This document shows, piece after piece, positions 3,680 to 62,527 of a stretch of 64,000 bases of DNA. The DNA lies in IMG/VR virus record IMGVR_UViG_3300037249_001000, positions 32,001-96,000 of that record; one strand, written 5' to 3'. Origin of the DNA: a virus (lineage: Duplodnaviria; Caudoviricetes). Each line of letters starts with the position of its first letter. The stretch's first letter is position 1. Below the pieces are notes generated by a model. That model did not search any database and was not told where the DNA came from. It worked only from the letters and a program-made list of their open reading frames with translations. Both the position numbers and the translations under genes were made by a program.

Positions 3680-3696
3680 AAAAAATAAAAAAATAA

Positions 3697-3724
3697 AGAT
3701 GAGTTGAATAATTCAACTCATCTT
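3697..3724. terminator. Bidirectional terminator between endolysin and 3753..4190
   Basis: AGATGAGTTGAAT / ATTCAACTCATCT stem with flanking A/T tracts. Confidence 0.75.
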
Positions 3725-3752
3725 TTATCACCTTCTTTCTTTTAATAAATTA

Positions 3753-4190
3753 TCAGATTCTACTTGAAAGCCTATGAATAGAACTTTCAAGATTACTAAT
3801 ATAATTATAACCGTAACGGTCATTAATCTCACTAATACTTTTTGCTGTTACACCATAACGGAGAACAACATTCTTCACCTTCATGTATCTGATTTCAATA
3901 TCATTAAGATCAGATACGATTCCATTGTAATATCCCCAAGGATACTTACTGTAGGAGATACTTCTAACATCCTCCTTGATGTTAAGGAAATCAACTTCGA
4001 GCTGGTTAAGTGTCTCTCTTGCATATTCCTCACGGCGGTTTTCATTCTCAGCTTCTGCTACCGCACCAAGGAAGCACAATCCAGCGATTGCAATAACACC
4101 AAGACCTTCACCGATACCCTTGCCTACGTTTTTAACCGTCTCAAGCTTGCCATTGTTCTTCCTGTTGTTGTTAAATACACTATTCTTCAT
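3753..4190 (-). CDS. Early membrane-anchored hypothetical protein (start probably ATG 4190)
   Basis: AAAGGA SD before ATG 4190; hydrophobic GLGVIAIAGLCFLGAVA segment; downstream of a divergent copy of the 40-bp promoter block. Confidence 0.7.
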   Translation of the reverse strand: MKNSVFNNNRKNNGKLETVKNVGKGIGEGLGVIAIAGLCFLGAVAEAENENRREEYARETLNQLEVDFLNIKEDVRSISYSKYPWGYYNGIVSDLNDIEIRYMKVKNVVLRYGVTAKSISEINDRYGYNYISNLESSIHRLSSRI

Positions 4191-4202
4191 AAAACGTCCT
4201 TT

Positions 4203-4265
4203 CCCCACTGTTACTGTCTTGGGATGACACGCTTTGATTAAAACTCGGGATAAAGCATAACTCCC
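4203..4265 (-). promoter_or_regulatory. Predicted tandem H-type pseudoknot 5' leader
   Basis: GGGA/UCCC with loop GCUUU pairing AAAGC; then UGUC/GACA with loop CCCA pairing UGGG directly before the SD. Confidence 0.5.
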
Positions 4266-4271
4266 TTTAAT

Positions 4272-4320
4272 ATTACACTAAAATAATATATATATGAATA
4301 ATACTAAAATACGGATAAAA
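4272..4320 (-). repeat. Divergent copy of the 40-bp early promoter block
   Basis: CCGTATTTT...ATATATTATTTTAGTGTAAT on the minus strand. Confidence 0.6.
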
Positions 4321-5635: not shown

Positions 5636-5884
5636 TTATACAGCATAAACTTCATAGAAAATGCTAGATGCATTTTCCATGTTTATACTGTACTTTTTCC
5701 TCATTGAATTGAGGAAGAGCTCTTCTGCCTTTGTAAAGCAGAGAGAATGATTAATGAGAGAAGTAAAATACTTTCTCTCCCCGTCAGTCATTGCATTCAT
5801 CAAATGATTGCGAATAATATACAATCTGATGATATTGCATCTTGTGTGATTAACGGATTTTTTGATTGTAGAAGTAGCTTTCAT
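5636..5884 (-). CDS. Small early hypothetical protein
   Basis: AAAGGAG SD; follows the 40-bp promoter block. Confidence 0.7.
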   Translation of the reverse strand: MKATSTIKKSVNHTRCNIIRLYIIRNHLMNAMTDGERKYFTSLINHSLCFTKAEELFLNSMRKKYSINMENASSIFYEVYAV

Positions 5885-5938
5885 AGCGTACTCCTTTCTC
5901 TGTTTTTAAGTCTTTAACCAGCTGACTTATTTTATTAT

Positions 5939-5978
5939 ACACAAAAATAATATATCAATATATATATTAAAAATACGG
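5939..5978 (-). repeat. 40-bp early promoter block, copy 1
   Basis: CCGTATTTTTAATATATATATTGATATATTATTTTTGTGT, identical to 6817-6856 and 46205-46244. Confidence 0.9.
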
Positions 5979-6777: not shown

Positions 6778-6816
6778 ATATAATACCACCTTTCTTTTAT
6801 TAATATATATATTATG

Positions 6817-6856
6817 ACACAAAAATAATATATCAATATATATATTAAAAATACGG
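6817..6856 (-). repeat. 40-bp early promoter block, copy 2
   Basis: Identical to 5939-5978. Confidence 0.9.
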
Positions 6857-46204: not shown

Positions 46205-46244
46205 CCGTATTTTTAATATATATATTGATATATTATTTTTGTGT
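46205..46244 (+). repeat. 40-bp early promoter block, copy 3
   Basis: Exact reverse complement of 5939-5978 and 6817-6856. Confidence 0.9.
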
Positions 46245-46280
46245 CATAATATAAAAATATATAAAAAGGAGGATAAGATT

Positions 46281-48708: not shown

Positions 48709-48750
48709 CCGTATTTTTAATATATATATATTGATATATTATTTTTGTGT
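48709..48750 (+). repeat. Early promoter block, copy 4 (one extra TA)
   Basis: CCGTATTTTTAATATATATATATTGATATATTATTTTTGTGT; its 5' part is the 3' arm of the upstream terminator hairpin. Confidence 0.88.
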
Positions 48751-48793
48751 ATATGAAATTTCATAGAAAAATAAAAACAAGGAGGTAAAAACT

Positions 48794-49116: not shown

Positions 49117-49156
49117 GAGAGTTGTGAAAGGAGGTGAAAACCAACTCTCTTTTTTT
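49117..49156 (+). terminator. Terminator with AAAGGAGGTGA (SD) in its loop
   Basis: GAGAGTTG/CAACTCTC stem plus U tract. Confidence 0.8.
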
Positions 49157-49202
49157 ATTTTTTTATAGTTATATATAATTTAGGTATACATATTAAATAT
49201 TC

Positions 49203-49260
49203 GGAGAGCAACACTCCTACGACTAATTAAAGTTGCAGTCACCCAAGACGTTAAAATGGG
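49203..49260 (+). promoter_or_regulatory. Predicted tandem H-type pseudoknot 5' leader
   Basis: GGAG/CUCC with loop GCAAC pairing GUUGC; then GUC/GAC with loop CCCA pairing UGGG. Confidence 0.5.
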
Positions 49261-49276
49261 AGAAACGGAGATTATT

Positions 49277-50350
49277 ATGATTAGACATTATGAAGGAAAA
49301 TTAGGAGTATTTGATTATGATGATACTGAATGGGAAATTACAGAAACTGGTAGTAATCCTTATACACATGGTCGCTGTAAAGAAAGTCTTCGCTATATTG
49401 GAGATAAAGTTGAAGGTGAAGATATTATAATTCCCTTTGGAGTTAGTGATTGCTCTTATATGTTTGCAGGGTGCACATCTCTCACAACAGCACCTACGAT
49501 TCCTGAAGGAGTTAGTGATTGTGACTGCATGTTTATGGGGTGTACATCTCTTACAACAGCACCGATTATTCCAGATGGAGTAAGAGCTTGTTCAAGTATG
49601 TTTCATGGGTGTACATCTCTTACAACAGCACCTACGATTCCTGAAGGAGTTAGAGACTGTTGGGCAATGTTTAAGGGGTGCACATCTCTCACAACAGCAC
49701 CTACGATTCCTGAAGGAGTTACTGTTTGTGAATGCATGTTTATGCGGTGTACATCTCTTACAACAGCACCTACGATTCCTGAAGGAGTTAGAGAGTGTTG
49801 GGCAATGTTTGCAGGGTGCACATCTCTCACAACAGCACCTATAATTTCCAAAGGAGTTACTGTTTGTGAATGCATGTTTATGCGGTGTACATCTCTTACA
49901 ACAGTACCTATGATTCCTGAAGAAGTTGTAGACTGTTGGGCAATGTTTAAGGGGTGCACATCTCTCACAACAGCACCTACGATTCCTGAAGGAGTTATTA
50001 ATTGCTCTTATATGTTTGATGGGTGCACATCTCTCACAACAGCACCTACGATTCCTGAAGGAGTTATTGATTGTGACTGCATGTTTTGTGACTGTTCATC
50101 TCTTACAACAGCACCTCAAATTCCCGAAGGAGTTACAGATTGTTCATGGATGTTTAAGGGGTGCACATCTCTCACAACAGCACCTCAAATTCCCACAGGA
50201 GTTAGTGATTGCTCTTATATGTTTGCAGGGTGCACATCTCTCACAACAGCACCTACGATTCCTGAAGGAGTTATTAATTGCTCTTATATGTTTGCAGGGT
50301 GCACATCTCTCACAACAGCACCTGAAATTCCTGAAGCATACACATACTAA
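49277..50350 (+). CDS. BspA/DUF285-like LRR protein with 13 near-identical 23-aa repeats
   Basis: GVxxCxxMFxGCTSLTTAPxIPE x13; GGAG SD before ATG 49277; no signal peptide. Confidence 0.85.
   Translation: MIRHYEGKLGVFDYDDTEWEITETGSNPYTHGRCKESLRYIGDKVEGEDIIIPFGVSDCSYMFAGCTSLTTAPTIPEGVSDCDCMFMGCTSLTTAPIIPDGVRACSSMFHGCTSLTTAPTIPEGVRDCWAMFKGCTSLTTAPTIPEGVTVCECMFMRCTSLTTAPTIPEGVRECWAMFAGCTSLTTAPIISKGVTVCECMFMRCTSLTTVPMIPEEVVDCWAMFKGCTSLTTAPTIPEGVINCSYMFDGCTSLTTAPTIPEGVIDCDCMFCDCSSLTTAPQIPEGVTDCSWMFKGCTSLTTAPQIPTGVSDCSYMFAGCTSLTTAPTIPEGVINCSYMFAGCTSLTTAPEIPEAYTY
49439..50335 (+). repeat. Coding tandem array, 13 x 69 bp
   Basis: Unit core ...TGYACATCTCTYACAACAGCACCTACGATTCCTGAAGGAGTT... Confidence 0.95.
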
Positions 50351-50474: not shown

Positions 50475-52760
50475 ATGGCAGAAGTACAAAAGTATTCATT
50501 AAAAGAAAAATTAACAGAAGCTGACAAAAGTTTATATAGGTCACCTTCTCTTTATGGTATGAGTGCTTTAACTATACCACGTTACATCAATTCAATGAGG
50601 TCGGTTATGTTTACTAACCACCTCAAACAATTTTTAACTCCACTTGACCCTGATTATCCATTTGTATTTACAAATGCAGAAAATCTTGTTGGTGAACATA
50701 GTAGTGGTTATAGGAGAATAAAACATGAATCCGAAGTATACCGAAAAGTTGTTAAATATGAAGATATACTTGGTAGTGATGCAAACGTATACAAACTTTT
50801 TATTCTTGATAAAAAGAAAAAGAAGTTTGATGTAATTGAAAGAAAAGAAGTTGAAGACCTTACAGAAAATTTCGGTTTTAATTATAATAATGAAGAAATT
50901 GATAAATATTCTGAAGGTGATACTATAAAGAAAGATACCGTTCTTTATAAATCGACTTCTTATGACGATGATATGTTTTATGGTTATGGAAAGAATACAA
51001 CTGTAATGTATACATTAGACCCATATACATCTGAGGATGCAGCAGTTGCTCGCAGAGGTTATGCTGATAACTATAAAACTATTGAAACAGAAGTTATTCA
51101 AATTAAATTAAATGATAATGATTTTCTGTTGAATCTTTATGGTGAGGAAGATGGGGAATATAAACCTCTTCCAGATATTGGTGAAACATGCACTGGCATT
51201 CTTGGTGCAATAAGAACCCAATTCAATGATCAACTACTTTATGATTTTAAATCATCTTCATTAAATAAAATTCATGACGGTGATAGAATTATTTATGTAA
51301 ATGATACAAATGAAATTGTAGATATTACGATATTTTCTAATAACGAAGAAATTGTTGATACAATTTTCAATACTCAAATTAATAAATATCTTGAGTCTCA
51401 AAATAAATATTATCAAGAGATTTATGATACATGTAAAGAAATAGTTGAATTTTGTGATTTTAATGCAGGATATTCATATTCACAAGAAATAGATTATTTG
51501 TATAAACGTTCTGGTGAAATGTTGGATACTAAAAAGAGATGGAAAGAGGGTGACACATCTTTTGCTAATATGGTAATTGAAATAGTCATTCGCAAGGAAG
51601 TTCCTTTACGTAAAGGCTGTAAATTGAGTGGACGCTATGGGAACAAATCCGTTATCTCAGAAATTAGAGACGATGATAAAATGCCATTTACTGAAGATGG
51701 AAAGCCTGTTGATTTACTTCTCAATCTTCTTGCTATTATTAACAGAACAACTTCATTTGCTATCTATGAATTAATTATAACATCTATTTGTTATAAAGTT
51801 CGTCAGAAAATGAAAACATTAAATTCTTATGAAGATAAAGAAAAATTAATGTTCGATATAATTAATGAATTTAACGAAATTCAGTATGAAGACATGATAA
51901 AGAGTTATAACAAATTATCTGATTCTGAAAAGAAATTAGTTATAGATGAAGCAATAACCGAAGGCATCTATATTAATCAGTCACCTGTAAAAGAAACCAA
52001 ACCTATCTTTTATCGAATTAAAGATATTCTTGATAAATATGATTGGCTTCAACCAGATTTTGTATATATTAAAGATAGCAATGGTAGAAAGATTAAAACT
52101 CTTTCTCGTCATTGGATTGGAGATATGTACATTATTAAATTAAAGCAGTCTGATAGAAGAGGATTTAGTGCACGCTCTACTGGTACTGTTGATATTAAGG
52201 GAGTACCAACTCGGTCATTTAAATCGAAAAATCATATGGAAAAACACTCAGATTCTGCGATCCGTTTTGGTGAATCAGAGACATTGAACTTTTCTATAGG
52301 TGTTCCAAGTGAAGATATTGCATTATTTAATTCTGTTTATCGCACATCAATAAAAGGAAGAGAGCAACTTGTAAAAAGTATGTTTAATTTTGATGGAAAG
52401 AATAATGAAAATAAAACTAAAATTGATTCTGCATATACATCTCGTGTTGCAGAAATATTTGCAGTATTCTTTAAATCATTGGGACTTGAAATTGATTTTG
52501 TTGATGAAGATAGCGTTGTACGAGGTTATGATAATAATGAAATTAAACTTCATACTACTGATGATGGGGAAACTCTTCTTTGTACAGATTATGAGTTTTT
52601 CTTGAAACAGAGATATGATGAAATTAAAGAAGAGATTCTTAAAGAAAATATTATTATGACTGATGAACAACTTAAATCAGAAATTGAAGCAAGACTTAAA
52701 GAAAGGAAATTCATTAATGGACCGTTGTATGATGAAGATGGTTCATTATTGTTTGAATAA
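50475..52760 (+). CDS. nvRNAP beta subunit C-terminal half
   Basis: SEDA, KLSGRYGNKSVIS, MPFTEDGKPVDLLLN, YIIKLKQ, RFGESE; early promoter at 50423-50430. Confidence 0.9.
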   Translation: MAEVQKYSLKEKLTEADKSLYRSPSLYGMSALTIPRYINSMRSVMFTNHLKQFLTPLDPDYPFVFTNAENLVGEHSSGYRRIKHESEVYRKVVKYEDILGSDANVYKLFILDKKKKKFDVIERKEVEDLTENFGFNYNNEEIDKYSEGDTIKKDTVLYKSTSYDDDMFYGYGKNTTVMYTLDPYTSEDAAVARRGYADNYKTIETEVIQIKLNDNDFLLNLYGEEDGEYKPLPDIGETCTGILGAIRTQFNDQLLYDFKSSSLNKIHDGDRIIYVNDTNEIVDITIFSNNEEIVDTIFNTQINKYLESQNKYYQEIYDTCKEIVEFCDFNAGYSYSQEIDYLYKRSGEMLDTKKRWKEGDTSFANMVIEIVIRKEVPLRKGCKLSGRYGNKSVISEIRDDDKMPFTEDGKPVDLLLNLLAIINRTTSFAIYELIITSICYKVRQKMKTLNSYEDKEKLMFDIINEFNEIQYEDMIKSYNKLSDSEKKLVIDEAITEGIYINQSPVKETKPIFYRIKDILDKYDWLQPDFVYIKDSNGRKIKTLSRHWIGDMYIIKLKQSDRRGFSARSTGTVDIKGVPTRSFKSKNHMEKHSDSAIRFGESETLNFSIGVPSEDIALFNSVYRTSIKGREQLVKSMFNFDGKNNENKTKIDSAYTSRVAEIFAVFFKSLGLEIDFVDEDSVVRGYDNNEIKLHTTDDGETLLCTDYEFFLKQRYDEIKEEILKENIIMTDEQLKSEIEARLKERKFINGPLYDEDGSLLFE

Positions 52761-52866
52761 TAATTAATTGGTTGGGGCAATAAAAAAATATTGCCCCAAT
52801 TGGTTATATATTATTTTTTGGACTGCGTAGAAATATGTAGAATTTATAAATAAGGAGATAATAATT

Positions 52867-54099
52867 ATGGGTAAGAAACAATCAGTGCATATTAGACGTC
52901 TTAATTGGGACATTTCCTTTTATGCCGATATGCTAGACGGTAACGGATTTCAAATAATTGAACCATCTGGTATTTCGATTAATGGTATGAAGAAAAAATC
53001 ATTATATGGTGCTTCATCACCATTATATGGTACAAGTTATGAAGATGAACAATCGTTTATTGAACGATATAGATGTTCATGTGGTGAATTTAAAGGTAGA
53101 TTATTTGAAGGGGAAGAATGCCCACTTTGTCATACTAAAGTAGAATATAAATCTAGTAATATTAATGTTACTGGATGGATTTCTTTAGGTATTAAAAGAT
53201 GCATTAATCCATACTATTTCAATATTCTTCTTTCAGCAATAGGTAAAAATGTATTTACTGAAATTATATTTAGTAAATATCGTGTTACTACAGACGGTCA
53301 GAGAAAGAAATTAACAGCAGATGACCATATGGATGTAGTACCGGAATCAATTTATTCGTTTATTGGTATGAATGAGTTTTATAATAATTATGAAGAAATT
53401 CTCACATATTTTAAAAATAAGAAGAAAAATAAAGCTCACACTTTTGATGTTTTATTAAAAGAAAAAAGAGCTGTATTTACTTCTCACATACCAGTATATT
53501 CGACAATGTTAAGACCACAATCAATTACATCCGATACATTTTATTTTGGTAGTATTGATAAAATTATTAATACATTATATTCACTTAGTGAACACTTAAA
53601 AGATGCAACAGATGTAGAAGAAGATTATATTCTGGAAAGAATCCAGAAAAAAGTTAATAAAATGTGGGACATTAACCTTGAATTAATCAATGGTAAAGAA
53701 GGATGGGTAAGACATCAATTGCTCGGTGGTTCAATGAACTATACTGCAAGAAATGTAATTATTCCCGATCCGACTCTTCATGATAATGAAGTTGATTTAT
53801 CATATAATACATTTTTGGAGATGTATAAGTATAAGATTATTTATTATATCATGCAACTTGATAATACATCATTGTCCAGAGCATATGAGACATGGAAAGA
53901 TGCATTTAGATTTGATGAAAAAGTGTATCAAATTATGTTACATGTATTGGATAAAGAACAACCAAGATTATTGATAAATCGAAATCCTACATTGAATTAT
54001 TACTCAATGATATTAATGAAAATAAGAACTATTAAAAAAGATATCACCGATTATACCCTGTCAGTTCCGCTTAGCATACTGCCAGGTCTTAATGCGGAT
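52867..54099 (+). CDS. nvRNAP beta' subunit, exon 1 (joined to 54456..56786; about 1187 aa spliced)
   Basis: CSCG...CPLC Zn finger, LRP, GKEGWVR, ARNVI, NRNPTL, GLNAD|FDGD; early promoter at 52807-52814. Confidence 0.9.
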
Positions 54100-54455
54100 C
54101 AACTTTCAAGGTCCGAGAGCACAGTAATGTGTTTCTATGTACGTTGTGAACTCCTAACAAGAGGTGTGACGAAAGTTGCTAACGGTATCAGTTAAATAAG
54201 TCACTTAAGTTTAACTTAAGTAGAGCGAATACACTGACTAAGAAAGCCTGAGGTCCTGAAAAGGATAGCTTGGTAATACCGTGCTGTTATTTTTAAAAGT
54301 GATTTAAAAATAGTAGTGTAGAGACTAACAAAAGCAATTTTAAATTGTAAGTAGGGTAGGTTTTAGTTTGAGGGCTAGAATCGAAGTGCAACGCCCCTAT
54401 ATTAATATAGGGTGAAGATATAGTCCACGCTGTATCGAAAGATATGGGTTTCGTG
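54100..54455 (+). ncRNA. Group I intron (356 nt, no homing endonuclease) splitting NAD|FDGD
   Basis: P1 CGGAU/GUCCG with U.G; P10 UCAAG/UUUGA; R GUAGAGACUA; S GAAGAUAUAGUCC (54414-54426); terminal G; splicing restores NADFDGD. Confidence 0.92.
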
Positions 54456-56786
54456 TTTGACGGTGATATCTTAAATATAATAGGTCTTATGAATAAAGCA
54501 TTTGTATTCATGTTTAGAAAATATGACCCAGTAATGAGAATGATTATTAGTAGAGATTCACGTCTCATCAATGAATACTTTTCTATCAATAAAGGTCAGT
54601 TAATTGATTTGTATACATTTGCAACTTATGATGGTGAAGATGGTTGTAATACTGAAGAATATTATCCTGAAGAAGAAACTATTCAGAAAGATAAGTTTAG
54701 TCTTTTAGTAGATTCACCTATTATAAATAATACAAGAGAATTAAAAGCATGGTTAAAAGATATATATATCTTAGAGGATTATTTAGAGTCATATGAACAA
54801 TATAGAATATTCCAGACTAAGATTTATAATATTCTTAAAGGCTGTTTTGTAATTCCTCAGTGTAGAGATTATCCTATAAGATTTAAATTTACGGCTAATT
54901 CAAAAGAATATGTATTACCATTAAGATTGTTTATAATAAATACTATTCTTTGGTATCCATTTGTAGAACTTAATGGAATAAATGTTTTAGATGAATCGTT
55001 TATCATATTTAATCCAGAAGTATTACCTAATATTGAAAATTATCTTAATGATAATTTAATTAGTATCCTTACTGAGTATCATGTTAAGCCTTCAAGTATG
55101 AACTATGCTATTTCAGAAGTTTTGTACAATCTTAGAGGTATTTCTAATGATTATTCTATTATTCTTGGTTTGGATTTTAATATTCCTATGTTTACAAAAC
55201 TTTATTCTGAAAATGATAGAATACGAGAAATAATGGAGTGTCATTTTGAAAATGATGCTCAACCACATGAAATTGAACAAGAATTATCTGTATTGGAAAA
55301 GGAATTTATCGGTATTGTTACTGGATTGAAAGATAACCATTTAGGTATTGCATTAAGAGCTCAAACAGGTATTAAACATAAACAGCTTACAGAGTTTGCA
55401 ATATCTGAAGGACTTAAACCAGATATATCTGGTAGAACTATTCCAATTCCAATTCAAACATCAACATTGATTGGTGGTACTAATACACCTAGTGCACAAT
55501 ATATTGATGCAGCTGCAGCTCGTAAGTCATTGATTATGAATAAAAAGGTTATGGGTATTGCAGGTCATTTTGGTAAAACAGTTCTTATGAGTGCTCGTAC
55601 TCTTAGTATGAGTACAGAAGTCTCAGATTGTGGAACAAAACATCTGGTTGCTTATGATGTTTTGAATAAAACTATTCTTAAGAAACTTACTGGTAAATTT
55701 TATAGACTTACAGATGACCCTGAAGAAGAATTAAAACTTCTTAATGCAAAGAAAGATAAAAATCTTATAGGTAAGACAATTTATGTACGTTCCGCTGCAA
55801 CATGTGCTTGTAGAAATCAACATCATGTATGTGCTAAATGTGTTGGATTAACTGCTGTAATTAATGCAGATATTTCAGATGGTATTTCAGCATTTGAATC
55901 AGAAGAAATTACAAAAGTTGTTAATCAGAATATTCTTTCTGCAAAACATTTGTTGTCAACAAATTCTGAAGAGATTAAATTCAATAAAGAATTTTATGAT
56001 TTCTTTACAATTGTAGGTGGTGAAATAAATCCGATTGTTAATGAAAATTCTAATGTTAATATAAAGGATTATGCTATTTATGTTGACCCAAGTGATATTG
56101 TAAAGATGGAAGAAATGGATGATGATTCATTGTACAATACAGTTATTGAAACTGGTAGATTCTTCATTCGTAATATCAATGATCCATCTGAACCTGATAT
56201 TGTTATTCAAGTAGAGGGTGAGAAAGAAATCTTTATAGAGGAAAGTATATTGGCTTTATTAAGATCTGGTAATAACATGATTAAGTTTACAGACCTTGAA
56301 GATGATGATAAACTCTTTGAAGTTATTATTATGAATAATGAGTTGACAAAACCATTGTATGAGTTGATGCATTTGTTGGATAAACAGAGTAAGGATACTA
56401 TTAATATTGATATTGATTATATTAGTAATAAATTCCTTAGTTTGGTAATTGATGCAAAGATAGATGTATCTGCTATCGCATGTGAGCTTATTATTAATAG
56501 ACTTATTCGTTCAGCTGAAGATATTTATCGCCGTCCTGATTTCTCAAAGGATACGTTAGAACCATATGTAATTTTTACAGTGAGAAAATCATTGGAAAAG
56601 AATCCATCACCTTTGATGGGGATAGGTTTCCAGAATATTAAACGTCAGTTGTTATCGAATGATTTGTTTGAAAAGAGAACTGAAACATCATATATTGATA
56701 ACTTCTTTAAACCAACAATATCAACGGAGAATTTGTCTAAATATGCTGTTTATTATGATGAAAACTCATTAAACAGTCCTAAATAA
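54456..56786 (+). CDS. nvRNAP beta' subunit, exon 2
   Basis: FDGD, ARKSL...AGHFGK (bridge-helix-like), DCGT, RSAATC...CAKC, QNILSAKH (trigger-loop-like). Confidence 0.88.
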   Translation, partial: FDGDILNIIGLMNKAFVFMFRKYDPVMRMIISRDSRLINEYFSINKGQLIDLYTFATYDGEDGCNTEEYYPEEETIQKDKFSLLVDSPIINNTRELKAWLKDIYILEDYLESYEQYRIFQTKIYNILKGCFVIPQCRDYPIRFKFTANSKEYVLPLRLFIINTILWYPFVELNGINVLDESFIIFNPEVLPNIENYLNDNLISILTEYHVKPSSMNYAISEVLYNLRGISNDYSIILGLDFNIPMFTKLYSENDRIREIMECHFENDAQPHEIEQELSVLEKEFIGIVTGLKDNHLGIALRAQTGIKHKQLTEFAISEGLKPDISGRTIPIPIQTSTLIGGTNTPSAQYIDAAAARKSLIMNKKVMGIAGHFGKTVLMSARTLSMSTEVSDCGTKHLVAYDVLNKTILKKLTGKFYRLTDDPEEELKLLNAKKDKNLIGKTIYVRSAATCACRNQHHVCAKCVGLTAVINADISDGISAFESEEITKVVNQNILSAKHLLSTNSEEIKFNKEFYDFFTIVGGEINPIVNENSNVNIKDYAIYVDPSDIVKMEEMDDDSLYNTVIETGRFFIRNINDPSEPDIVIQVEGEKEIFIEESILALLRSGNNMIKFTDLEDDDKLFEVIIMNNELTKPLYELMHLLDKQSKDTINIDIDYISNKFLSLVIDAKIDVSAIACELIINRLIRSAEDIYRRPDFSKDTLEPYVIFTVRKSLEKNPSPLMGIGFQNIKRQLLSNDLFEKRTETSYIDNFFKPTISTENLSKYAVYYDENSLNSPK

Positions 56787-62055: not shown

Positions 62056-62144
62056 TGGTGCCGGTGACGAGATTTGAACTCGTACGGGTTATACAATCCG
62101 AGGGATTTTAAGTCCCTTGTGTCTGCCTATTCCACCACACCGGC
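62056..62144 (-). tRNA. tRNA-Leu(UAA)
   Basis: GCCGGTG acceptor, CT-TAA-AA loop, long variable arm, TTCAAAT T-loop, encoded CCA. Confidence 0.93.
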
Positions 62145-62176
62145 AAATATTTATTTCCTATGTATATATAATTAAG

Positions 62177-62248
62177 CTGGGCTGGCGAGATTCGAACTCA
62201 CGGATGACGGAGTCAAAGTCCGTTGCCTTACCACTTGGCGACAGCCCA
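62177..62248 (-). tRNA. tRNA-Gln(UUG)
   Basis: TGGGCTG/CAGCCCA acceptor, CT-TTG-AC loop, TTCGAAT. Confidence 0.93.
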
Positions 62249-62269
62249 TTATATTAGATGTTTTACTAA

Positions 62270-62335
62270 TGACTCAGTTGGATCTACGTATAGGATATAG
62301 GAGTTGTCAAATAATATATCTAACCAACTGAGTCA
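62270..62335 (-). ncRNA. Structured RNA candidate within the tRNA cluster
   Basis: 12-bp TGACTCAGTTGG/CCAACTGAGTCA stem enclosing a GATATA/TATATC stem. Confidence 0.3.
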
Positions 62336-62367
62336 AATTTTTCATTACGACTCTCTATTGAGTTGTA

Positions 62368-62443
62368 TGGTGAACCATCGGAGATTCGAACTCCGGACAC
62401 CTTGATTAAAAGTCAAGTGCTCTGCCTACTGAGCTAATGATTC
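62368..62443 (-). tRNA. tRNA-Lys(UUU)
   Basis: CTTGA-CTTTTAA-TCAAG anticodon arm, encoded CCA. Confidence 0.93.
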
Positions 62444-62452
62444 ATATAATAG

Positions 62453-62527
62453 TGCAGCCTCAGGGACTCGAACCCTGGACCAACCGGTTATGAGCCGGTA
62501 GCTCTAACCAAACTGAGCTAAGGCTAC
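62453..62527 (-). tRNA. tRNA with CAU anticodon, probably Ile2 (lysidine type)
   Basis: ACCGG-CTCATAA-CCGGT arm resembles Firmicute tRNA-Ile2; no initiator GGG/CCC. Confidence 0.85.

Follow-up and report, generated by a model that had tools for sequence, protein, structure and literature searches.

The window analysed here, a stretch of 64,000 nucleotides, forms part of a 139,539 bp phage genome fragment (G000) with a G+C content of 27% and a CheckV completeness of 58%. The phage encodes the split β and β′ subunits of its own multisubunit RNA polymerase (positions 50475-56786 of the window) and is therefore considered to be of the jumbo-phage type. The window also contains a cassette, here called A, in which an early promoter is followed by a structured leader and the gene for a leucine-rich-repeat (LRR) protein (Table 1). 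The leader contains two interleaved, H-type pseudoknots in tandem and ends in the Shine-Dalgarno (SD) sequence, with 16 nt between the last paired base and the AUG at 49277. An in-frame AUG at 49256 was rejected as the start of the gene, since it has no SD and its counterpart in another copy of the leader (copy C, below) opens a frame of only four codons.

The tandem leader is present in three copies in G000, each before an unrelated early gene: the LRR gene (copy A), a 145-aa ORFan gene (B) and a 73-aa one (C). There is, in addition, one leader with a single knot, found directly after the early promoter at 5928-5976(-) and before an 82-aa gene at 5636-5884. The interleaved helices of leaders A and B were re-derived by script from the sequence, and both read exactly as given in the preliminary description of this DNA. 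Also in agreement with that description, the leaders are GC-rich islands, having 45% G+C in a window of 27%. Copy C differs from copy A only in the 14-nt linker that makes up loop 3 of pseudoknot 1. A strict descriptor of pseudoknot 2 gave four matches in G000, all at copies A, B and C (B in two registers), and none in three mononucleotide shuffles. Nested minimum-free-energy folding of the leaders was not significant (z = -0.02 and -0.8), as expected for structures that are pseudoknots.

Table 1. Features of the leader-bearing cassettes and related elements. Positions are those of the window unless prefixed G000.
Feature	Position	Strand	Details
Intrinsic terminator of preceding cassette	49117..49156	+	GAGAGUUG / CAACUCUC stem, SD-like loop, then U run
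Early promoter, cassette A	49157..49196	+	Diverged copy; -10-like TATACAT 49185-49191
Pseudoknot 1, leader A	49203..49236	+	GGAG/CUCC interleaved with GCAAC/GUUGC, 14-nt loop 3; GGAG 49203-06, A, GCAAC 49208-12, A, CUCC 49214-17, GUUGC 49232-36
Pseudoknot 2, leader A	49238..49260	+	GUC/GAC interleaved with CCCA/UGGG, member of GUCA...AAGAC family; GUC 49238-40, A, CCCA 49242-45, A, GAC 49247-49, GUUAAAA, UGGG 49257-60
Tail box, SD and spacer, leader A	49261..49276	+	Tail box AGAAAC, SD GGAG
LRR gene, cassette A	49277..50350	+	357 aa, leucine-rich-repeat (BspA-like)
Early promoter, cassette B	4266..4312	-	GTATTTT box, TATATATTATTTT, then -10-like AGTGTAATA
Pseudoknot 1, leader B	4231..4265	-	GGGA/UCCC interleaved with GCUUU/AAAGC; GGGA 4265-62, GUUAU, GCUUU 4256-52, A, UCCC 4250-47, 11-nt linker, AAAGC 4235-31
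Pseudoknot 2, leader B	4204..4229	-	UGUC/GACA interleaved with CCCA/UGGG; UGUC 4229-26, AU, CCCA 4223-20, A, GACA 4218-15, GUAACAG, UGGG 4207-04
SD and ORFan gene, cassette B	3753..4203	-	SD GAAAGGA; AUG 4190; 145 aa, predicted membrane segment
Leader copy C	G000:126202-126284	-	Outside window; before 73-aa ORFan gene
Single mini-pseudoknot leader	5894..5927	-	Stem 1 AAGUC/GACUU, loop CUG / tail CAG
Four-tRNA cluster	62059-62527	-	Sole Rfam matches in window at gathering score

The early promoters of G000 have a long (~45-nt) conserved motif, seen in at least 13 strict copies and mostly before single small genes. It consists of GTATTTTTAAT, about 10 nt, (G/T)ATATATTATTTT and then TGTGT(C)ATAATA, so that its 3′ end takes the form of an extended -10-like TGTGnATAAT. 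Copies within the window include, besides the promoters of cassette B and of the single-knot leader, those at 6806-6854(-), 46207-46250(+) and 48711-48760(+). The promoter of cassette A, with its putative transcription start, was recognised by eye against the 13 strict copies. The leaders start roughly 0-7 nt past the -10-like end of the promoter motif; for B and C the distance is about 7 nt, and leader A, behind its diverged promoter, has about 7 nt more. Pseudoknot 1 would thus sit at the 5′ end of the mRNA. The suggestion that a cis-acting RNA element recurs right after early promoters is borne out by the three tandem copies and the promoter motif. The majority of early promoters, however, are followed by short, unstructured, AT-rich leaders with a AAAGGAGG SD, so that a knot is not required for expression as such. 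Every cassette has its own terminator at its end. The one immediately upstream of the cassette A promoter was absent from an automatic terminator scan because its loop is long; an SD-like AAAGGAGGUGAAAA is displayed in that loop.

Pseudoknot 1 was found only in the clade of G000. Comparison of copies A and C with copy B shows that its helices are kept through compensatory change, as had been claimed: GCAAC/GUUGC against GCUUU/AAAGC in the 5-bp stem amounts to three double changes, and GGAG/CUCC against GGGA/UCCC in the 4-bp stem to either two double changes or a one-base slip. Among five variants of the A type, none of the 18 stem positions varies, compared with eight of the 17 loop positions (Fisher p = 0.001). 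When pseudoknot 1 segments were shuffled, an H-type knot with Watson-Crick pairs only and stems of at least 4 and 5 bp was obtained in 0.25% (A) and 0.5% (B) of cases; with G-U pairs allowed, 26% of shuffles reach copy B, which taken alone is then unremarkable. The compensatory differences between copies and the confinement of variation to loops thus lend the predicted pseudoknot 1 a moderate degree of support, the sequences being effectively of two independent types. Two other pairings were tried and rejected. A hairpin formed by GUUGCA with loop 3 of pseudoknot 1 has six of seven possible pairs in A and C but only three of seven in the relative L358. Sequestration of the SD by CUCC was discarded as a conserved property, since A and C have the same CUCC and different SDs.

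Pseudoknot 2 has a much wider context: it is the CCCA/UGGG variant of a widespread family of phage mini-pseudoknot leaders. The family pattern is N-GUC-A-[loop]-AA-GAC-N′, followed by an A/U-rich loop 3 of 6-8 nt (typically 7), a tail complementary to the loop, AGAAAGG (the SD) and AUG. The box at the SD has the general form (A/G)GAAA(G), and the loop pairs with 2-5 nt just 5′ of AGAAAGG. The start codon comes about 15 nt after the knot, with some 16 nt separating it from the last paired base. Copies A, B and C and the single-knot leader all show this arrangement. In a metagenome scan the core and tail of pseudoknot 2 had five matches, at least four of them between genes in AT-rich DNA, with an SD and AUG following directly and no pseudoknot 1. 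A covariance model of these matches also found, as a weaker match, the single-knot leader of G000, and with it the counterpart in a 66% relative (AAGUC-AGCUG..AA-GAC-UUAAAAA-CAG-AGAAAGG). Two scans of IMG/VR, with GUCA, AAGAC, loop 3 and AGAAAG fixed and the loop and tail left free, then yielded about 30 true leaders before small unrelated ORFans. The exact core of pseudoknot 2 produced only chance matches in coding regions of IMG/VR. Likewise, a scan of reference bacterial and archaeal genomes with the CCCA/UGGG type alone gave nine matches, all of them chance occurrences in coding DNA.

The carriers of the family include phages of 160-215 kb without a phage RNA polymerase, in which there are 1-3 copies per genome and no matches to the reversed control pattern. 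Among 25 IMG/VR relatives that have the polymerase a true copy was seen in one. Such a patchy distribution is as expected for a mobile regulatory module. The preliminary description had regarded the element as a class belonging to this phage group, which holds for pseudoknot 1 and the tandem layout, both specific to the clade, but not for pseudoknot 2, which is found in unrelated phages and only patchily among relatives. In a 250-kb IMG/VR phage (G001) whose RNA polymerase β subunit is 62% identical to that of G000, no copy of the leader was detected by BLAST, descriptor or covariance model, and the CCGTATTTT promoter was also missing. Across the family, the end of the knot lies 14-16 nt from the start codon in 25 of 32 leaders, a regularity due in part to the inclusion of the SD in the search pattern. 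In most members the SD is left free by stem 2, which in several subtypes is only a 2-bp GG/CC helix.

Covariation among homologues, which had been put forward as a check, is seen in the loop/tail helix of the mini-pseudoknot and in the outer pair of stem 1. The loop and tail pair as GGUU/AACC, GG/CC, CUG/CAG, GUG/CAC, CGU/ACG, AGU/ACU, CU/AG or CCCA/UGGG, the pairing being absent in one lineage (L246/L276). Their complementarity averages 2.54 bp, as against 1.44 +/- 0.17 bp when tails are swapped among members, and none of 5000 permutations reaches the observed value. The outer pair of stem 1 is AU in nine leaders, CG in eight, UG in four and UA in two, with six other or unpaired. Its covariation score of 0.200, compared with 0.073 +/- 0.030 for shuffled data, was reached in none of 500 shuffles and collapses in slid registers. 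The four U-G pairs would fit an RNA of the sense strand rather than a DNA cruciform. The core GUC/GAC is near-invariant even if left free in the search (7/7), as are loop 3 and the adjoining A and AA. Since the inner GUC/GAC is invariant, it neither supports nor contradicts stem 1, for which the evidence is confined to the outer pair and one variant with a replaced stem. The latter (L354, position 3489) has AAGGU/ACCUU together with CUCAG/CUGGG, keeps the AGAAAG tail box and stands behind a promoter of the G000 type. This stem-swapped pseudoknot leader is common to two small genes (L354:3360-3490 and 3680-3810; L356).

The modularity of the cassettes is best seen in relatives of the source phage. 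Close relatives were found neither among GenBank phages nor in IMG/VR, where a scan with the promoter pattern also retrieved none, and the GenBank phage collection held no DNA similar to cassette A, cassette B or a mainstream family member; closer relatives are known only from ENA and Logan contigs. Some of these carry the leaders almost unaltered: leader C with one change, in loop 1 (L166), leader A with a further, third sequence in loop 3 (L358), and leader A with a G inserted in loop 1 (L354:4142). Others have exchanged them. In L175 a gene 95% identical to that of cassette B has the same promoter and a different, longer leader (L175:1480-1591), and in L163, an 87% relative, the slot of cassette A is filled by other small genes with plain leaders. 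L354, an ENA contig of 108 kb, contains two LRR genes in tandem (L354:4142-5912), of which the second (L354:4908) is preceded by GUUGCA and pseudoknot 2 only, the 5′ part of pseudoknot 1 being missing. The junction between the two genes thus falls inside the leader, indicating recombination within it.

Three observations on relatives were made in passing. In the L175 leader nothing but UUCCCAAUGGGAGGAAAGG is retained, perhaps as what is left of a collapsed pseudoknot 2. In two independent Logan assemblies (L167 and L168) the contig end coincides with the first base of pseudoknot 2, as would be expected if assembly had broken at a repeat. Finally, in a 92% relative (L162) a gene for a GIY-YIG endonuclease is inserted between two genes of RNA polymerase subunits (L162:3988-4692), at a site where G000 has an intergenic gap only (window ~54196-54443).

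Such exchange is reminiscent of the PeSL cassettes of RB49 and phi1, phages of the T4 type, in which a conserved early promoter, a structured element and an SD likewise stand before ORFans. As in L163, L175 and L354 here, closely related phages differ in which of these cassettes they have, and recombination takes place inside them. This raises the question of whether the promoter-leader block acts at the level of DNA, as a PeSL-like homology patch for the shuffling of ORFans, with the RNA fold being incidental. Besides the precedent (PMC2839356), the different cassettes at the same slot in close relatives and the junction inside the leader of L354 are in line with this, as is cassette B of the relative L171, where promoter and leader are identical at 150 of 150 positions while the coding part has diverged (410/438). 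We nevertheless consider it improbable, because it leaves the compensatory changes in two helices, the U-G pairs and the fixed distance to the start codon unexplained, and because the family occurs in unrelated phages with different promoters. The stem-loop of a PeSL, a GC hairpin situated within or around the promoter, serves as a terminator (PMC2839356), whereas the structure in G000 is a covarying pseudoknot in the transcribed leader, 3′ of the -10 and without a U run.

Comparison with Rfam 15 agrees with the earlier supposition that no known family is involved. At the gathering threshold only the four tRNAs were matched in the window, where group I intron models gave nothing; at E<10 there was nothing relevant on leaders A and B or on the family locus L321, and among 14 family loci the only matches, to group I introns and GP20-a, lay elsewhere. 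The GUCA...AAGAC mini-pseudoknot is a phage leader RNA family absent from Rfam, although it may be included in a published catalogue of about 8,500 candidate IMG/VR RNAs (PMC10690425). Closest in architecture is the preQ1-I riboswitch (RF00522), an H-type aptamer (PMC7038950). Both are H-type knots of about 30-34 nt with an A-rich loop 3, and in both the hairpin loop pairs with a tail past loop 3 so that the 3′ strand comes to lie at the SD. This topology, read from the sequences and backed by covariation, shows a likeness of build and not membership. The phage family has no RF00522 match at E<10, and its conserved nucleotides are a different set, GUCA...AAGAC. Its SD is mostly outside stem 2, and downstream there are no queuosine or 7-deazaguanine genes but the LRR gene and ORFans without a PHROG function.

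The resemblance brings into play a regulated switch, in which the mini-pseudoknot would serve as aptamer or operator, its stem 2 being formed only upon binding of a small molecule, a ribosome or a host or phage protein, so timing or throttling the translation of early ORFans; the tandem knots of this phage would then represent two inputs or alternative pairings. Size and topology like those of preQ1-I-type aptamers speak for it, as does the strong conservation of unpaired and junction nucleotides over unrelated phages. The CUCC/UCCC strand of pseudoknot 1 has a second possible partner in GGAG/GGGA, at the 3′ margin of pseudoknot 2, and this choice makes a switch conceivable. Yet the downstream genes have no common function, where a metabolite riboswitch normally tracks a pathway, and the position of the SD outside stem 2 in most members is equally unfavourable. 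A partner protein specific to one phage is hard to reconcile with a family that crosses unrelated phages, and CUCC could pair with the SD of A but not with that of C, despite an identical pseudoknot 1. Such a switch is therefore possible but, in our judgement, somewhat unlikely.

Other folded leaders offer further points of comparison. The rpsO (S15) operator pseudoknot and the 5′ stabiliser stem-loops of Bacillus mRNAs border a ribosome-binding site on its 5′ side or occupy the 5′ end of the message, and affect 30S docking or decay; their sequences and partners are other than those of the phage leaders. The rpsO case is mentioned in a paper cited above (PMC7038950). The gene 32 mRNA leader of T-even phages also starts with an H-type pseudoknot, in which the two stems are stacked coaxially. 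That pseudoknot nucleates the binding of gp32 over an A+U-rich operator, well upstream of the ribosome-binding site (PMC3014915), and is tied to one gene, whereas the present family is gene-independent, abuts the SD and precedes unrelated ORFans.

The proximity of a conserved purine box to the SD might alternatively mark a site at which an mRNA-inactivating endonuclease or a translational repressor, comparable to RegB or RegA, turns early genes off, the GGGAGAAA / AGAAAGGA box being the target presented by the knot. T4 RegB does cleave early mRNAs at GGAG within their SD regions, with a preference for A-rich sequence on the 3′ side (PMC3014915). However, GGAG is missing from most family members, which have just the SD, and RNA structure protects against RegB (PMC3014915), so that this reading strikes us as very improbable.

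The interpretation that we favour, tentatively, is that the leader is a constitutive module of shuffled early-gene cassettes, which would protect the 5′ end of the message and insulate and present the SD. A block to RNase J, enhancement of translation and a switch, the roles suggested in the preliminary description, are all candidates. Two H-type pseudoknots acting in cis would be transcribed from the conserved early promoter in cassettes of promoter, leader, ORFan and terminator. Folded compactly in the cell, they would shield the 5′ end from decay that depends on it, prevent the SD from being paired off by the variable leader sequence upstream and hold the SD single-stranded at the edge of the stacked helices. 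The net effect on message stability and translation would be strong, context-independent expression of any ORFan shuffled into the cassette. A general expression module is preferred over a pathway-specific sensor because use of the leader is independent of the gene, because it is positioned at the 5′ end of the mRNA with its 3′ edge at an exposed SD, and because it is spread over unrelated phages and freely exchanged with unstructured leaders. Against a constitutive stabiliser stand the near-invariant unpaired nucleotides, which are more typical of a ligand- or protein-binding site, but invariant nucleotides in junctions and loops could equally reflect base triples needed to fold so small a knot. 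More speculatively, the GUCA...AAGAC knot may be a new, horizontally mobile device that is read by a conserved host component and sets the timing or level of early ORFan translation across many unrelated phages, a proposal that we regard as unlikely. Candidates for such a component would be the 30S platform, a ribonuclease or a small ligand, and the presence of a second knot here would make a two-part switch.

Small leader pseudoknots adjacent to ribosome-binding sites are familiar chiefly as riboswitches or autoregulatory operators that serve a single gene. In the present family, a covarying knot of about 30 nt accompanies promoters in many unrelated phages, whatever the ORFan that follows. 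Should it enhance or gate expression, it would represent a general rule of phage early-gene design and also a compact, portable expression-control part for low-GC hosts. The natural variants, with tandem knots, one knot, a swapped stem or no knot, constitute a ready-made mutational series.

Structured leaders of other kinds are also present. Two further promoters outside the window, at G000:31353(-) and G000:120947(-), are followed by a plain hairpin, GUUAUGCUU(A/G)AUC...AAAAGCA, and this GUUAUGCUU...AAGCA hairpin is homologous to the 5-bp stem of pseudoknot 1 in leader B. The first of them offers a further pairing, between CUAUU in the loop and the AAUAG that immediately precedes the SD. Lastly, a GUCUA(U)...(A)UAGAC-GAAG hairpin stands right before a gene start both in G000, outside the window (123060, -), and in G001 (212494, +), and may be a separately conserved leader.
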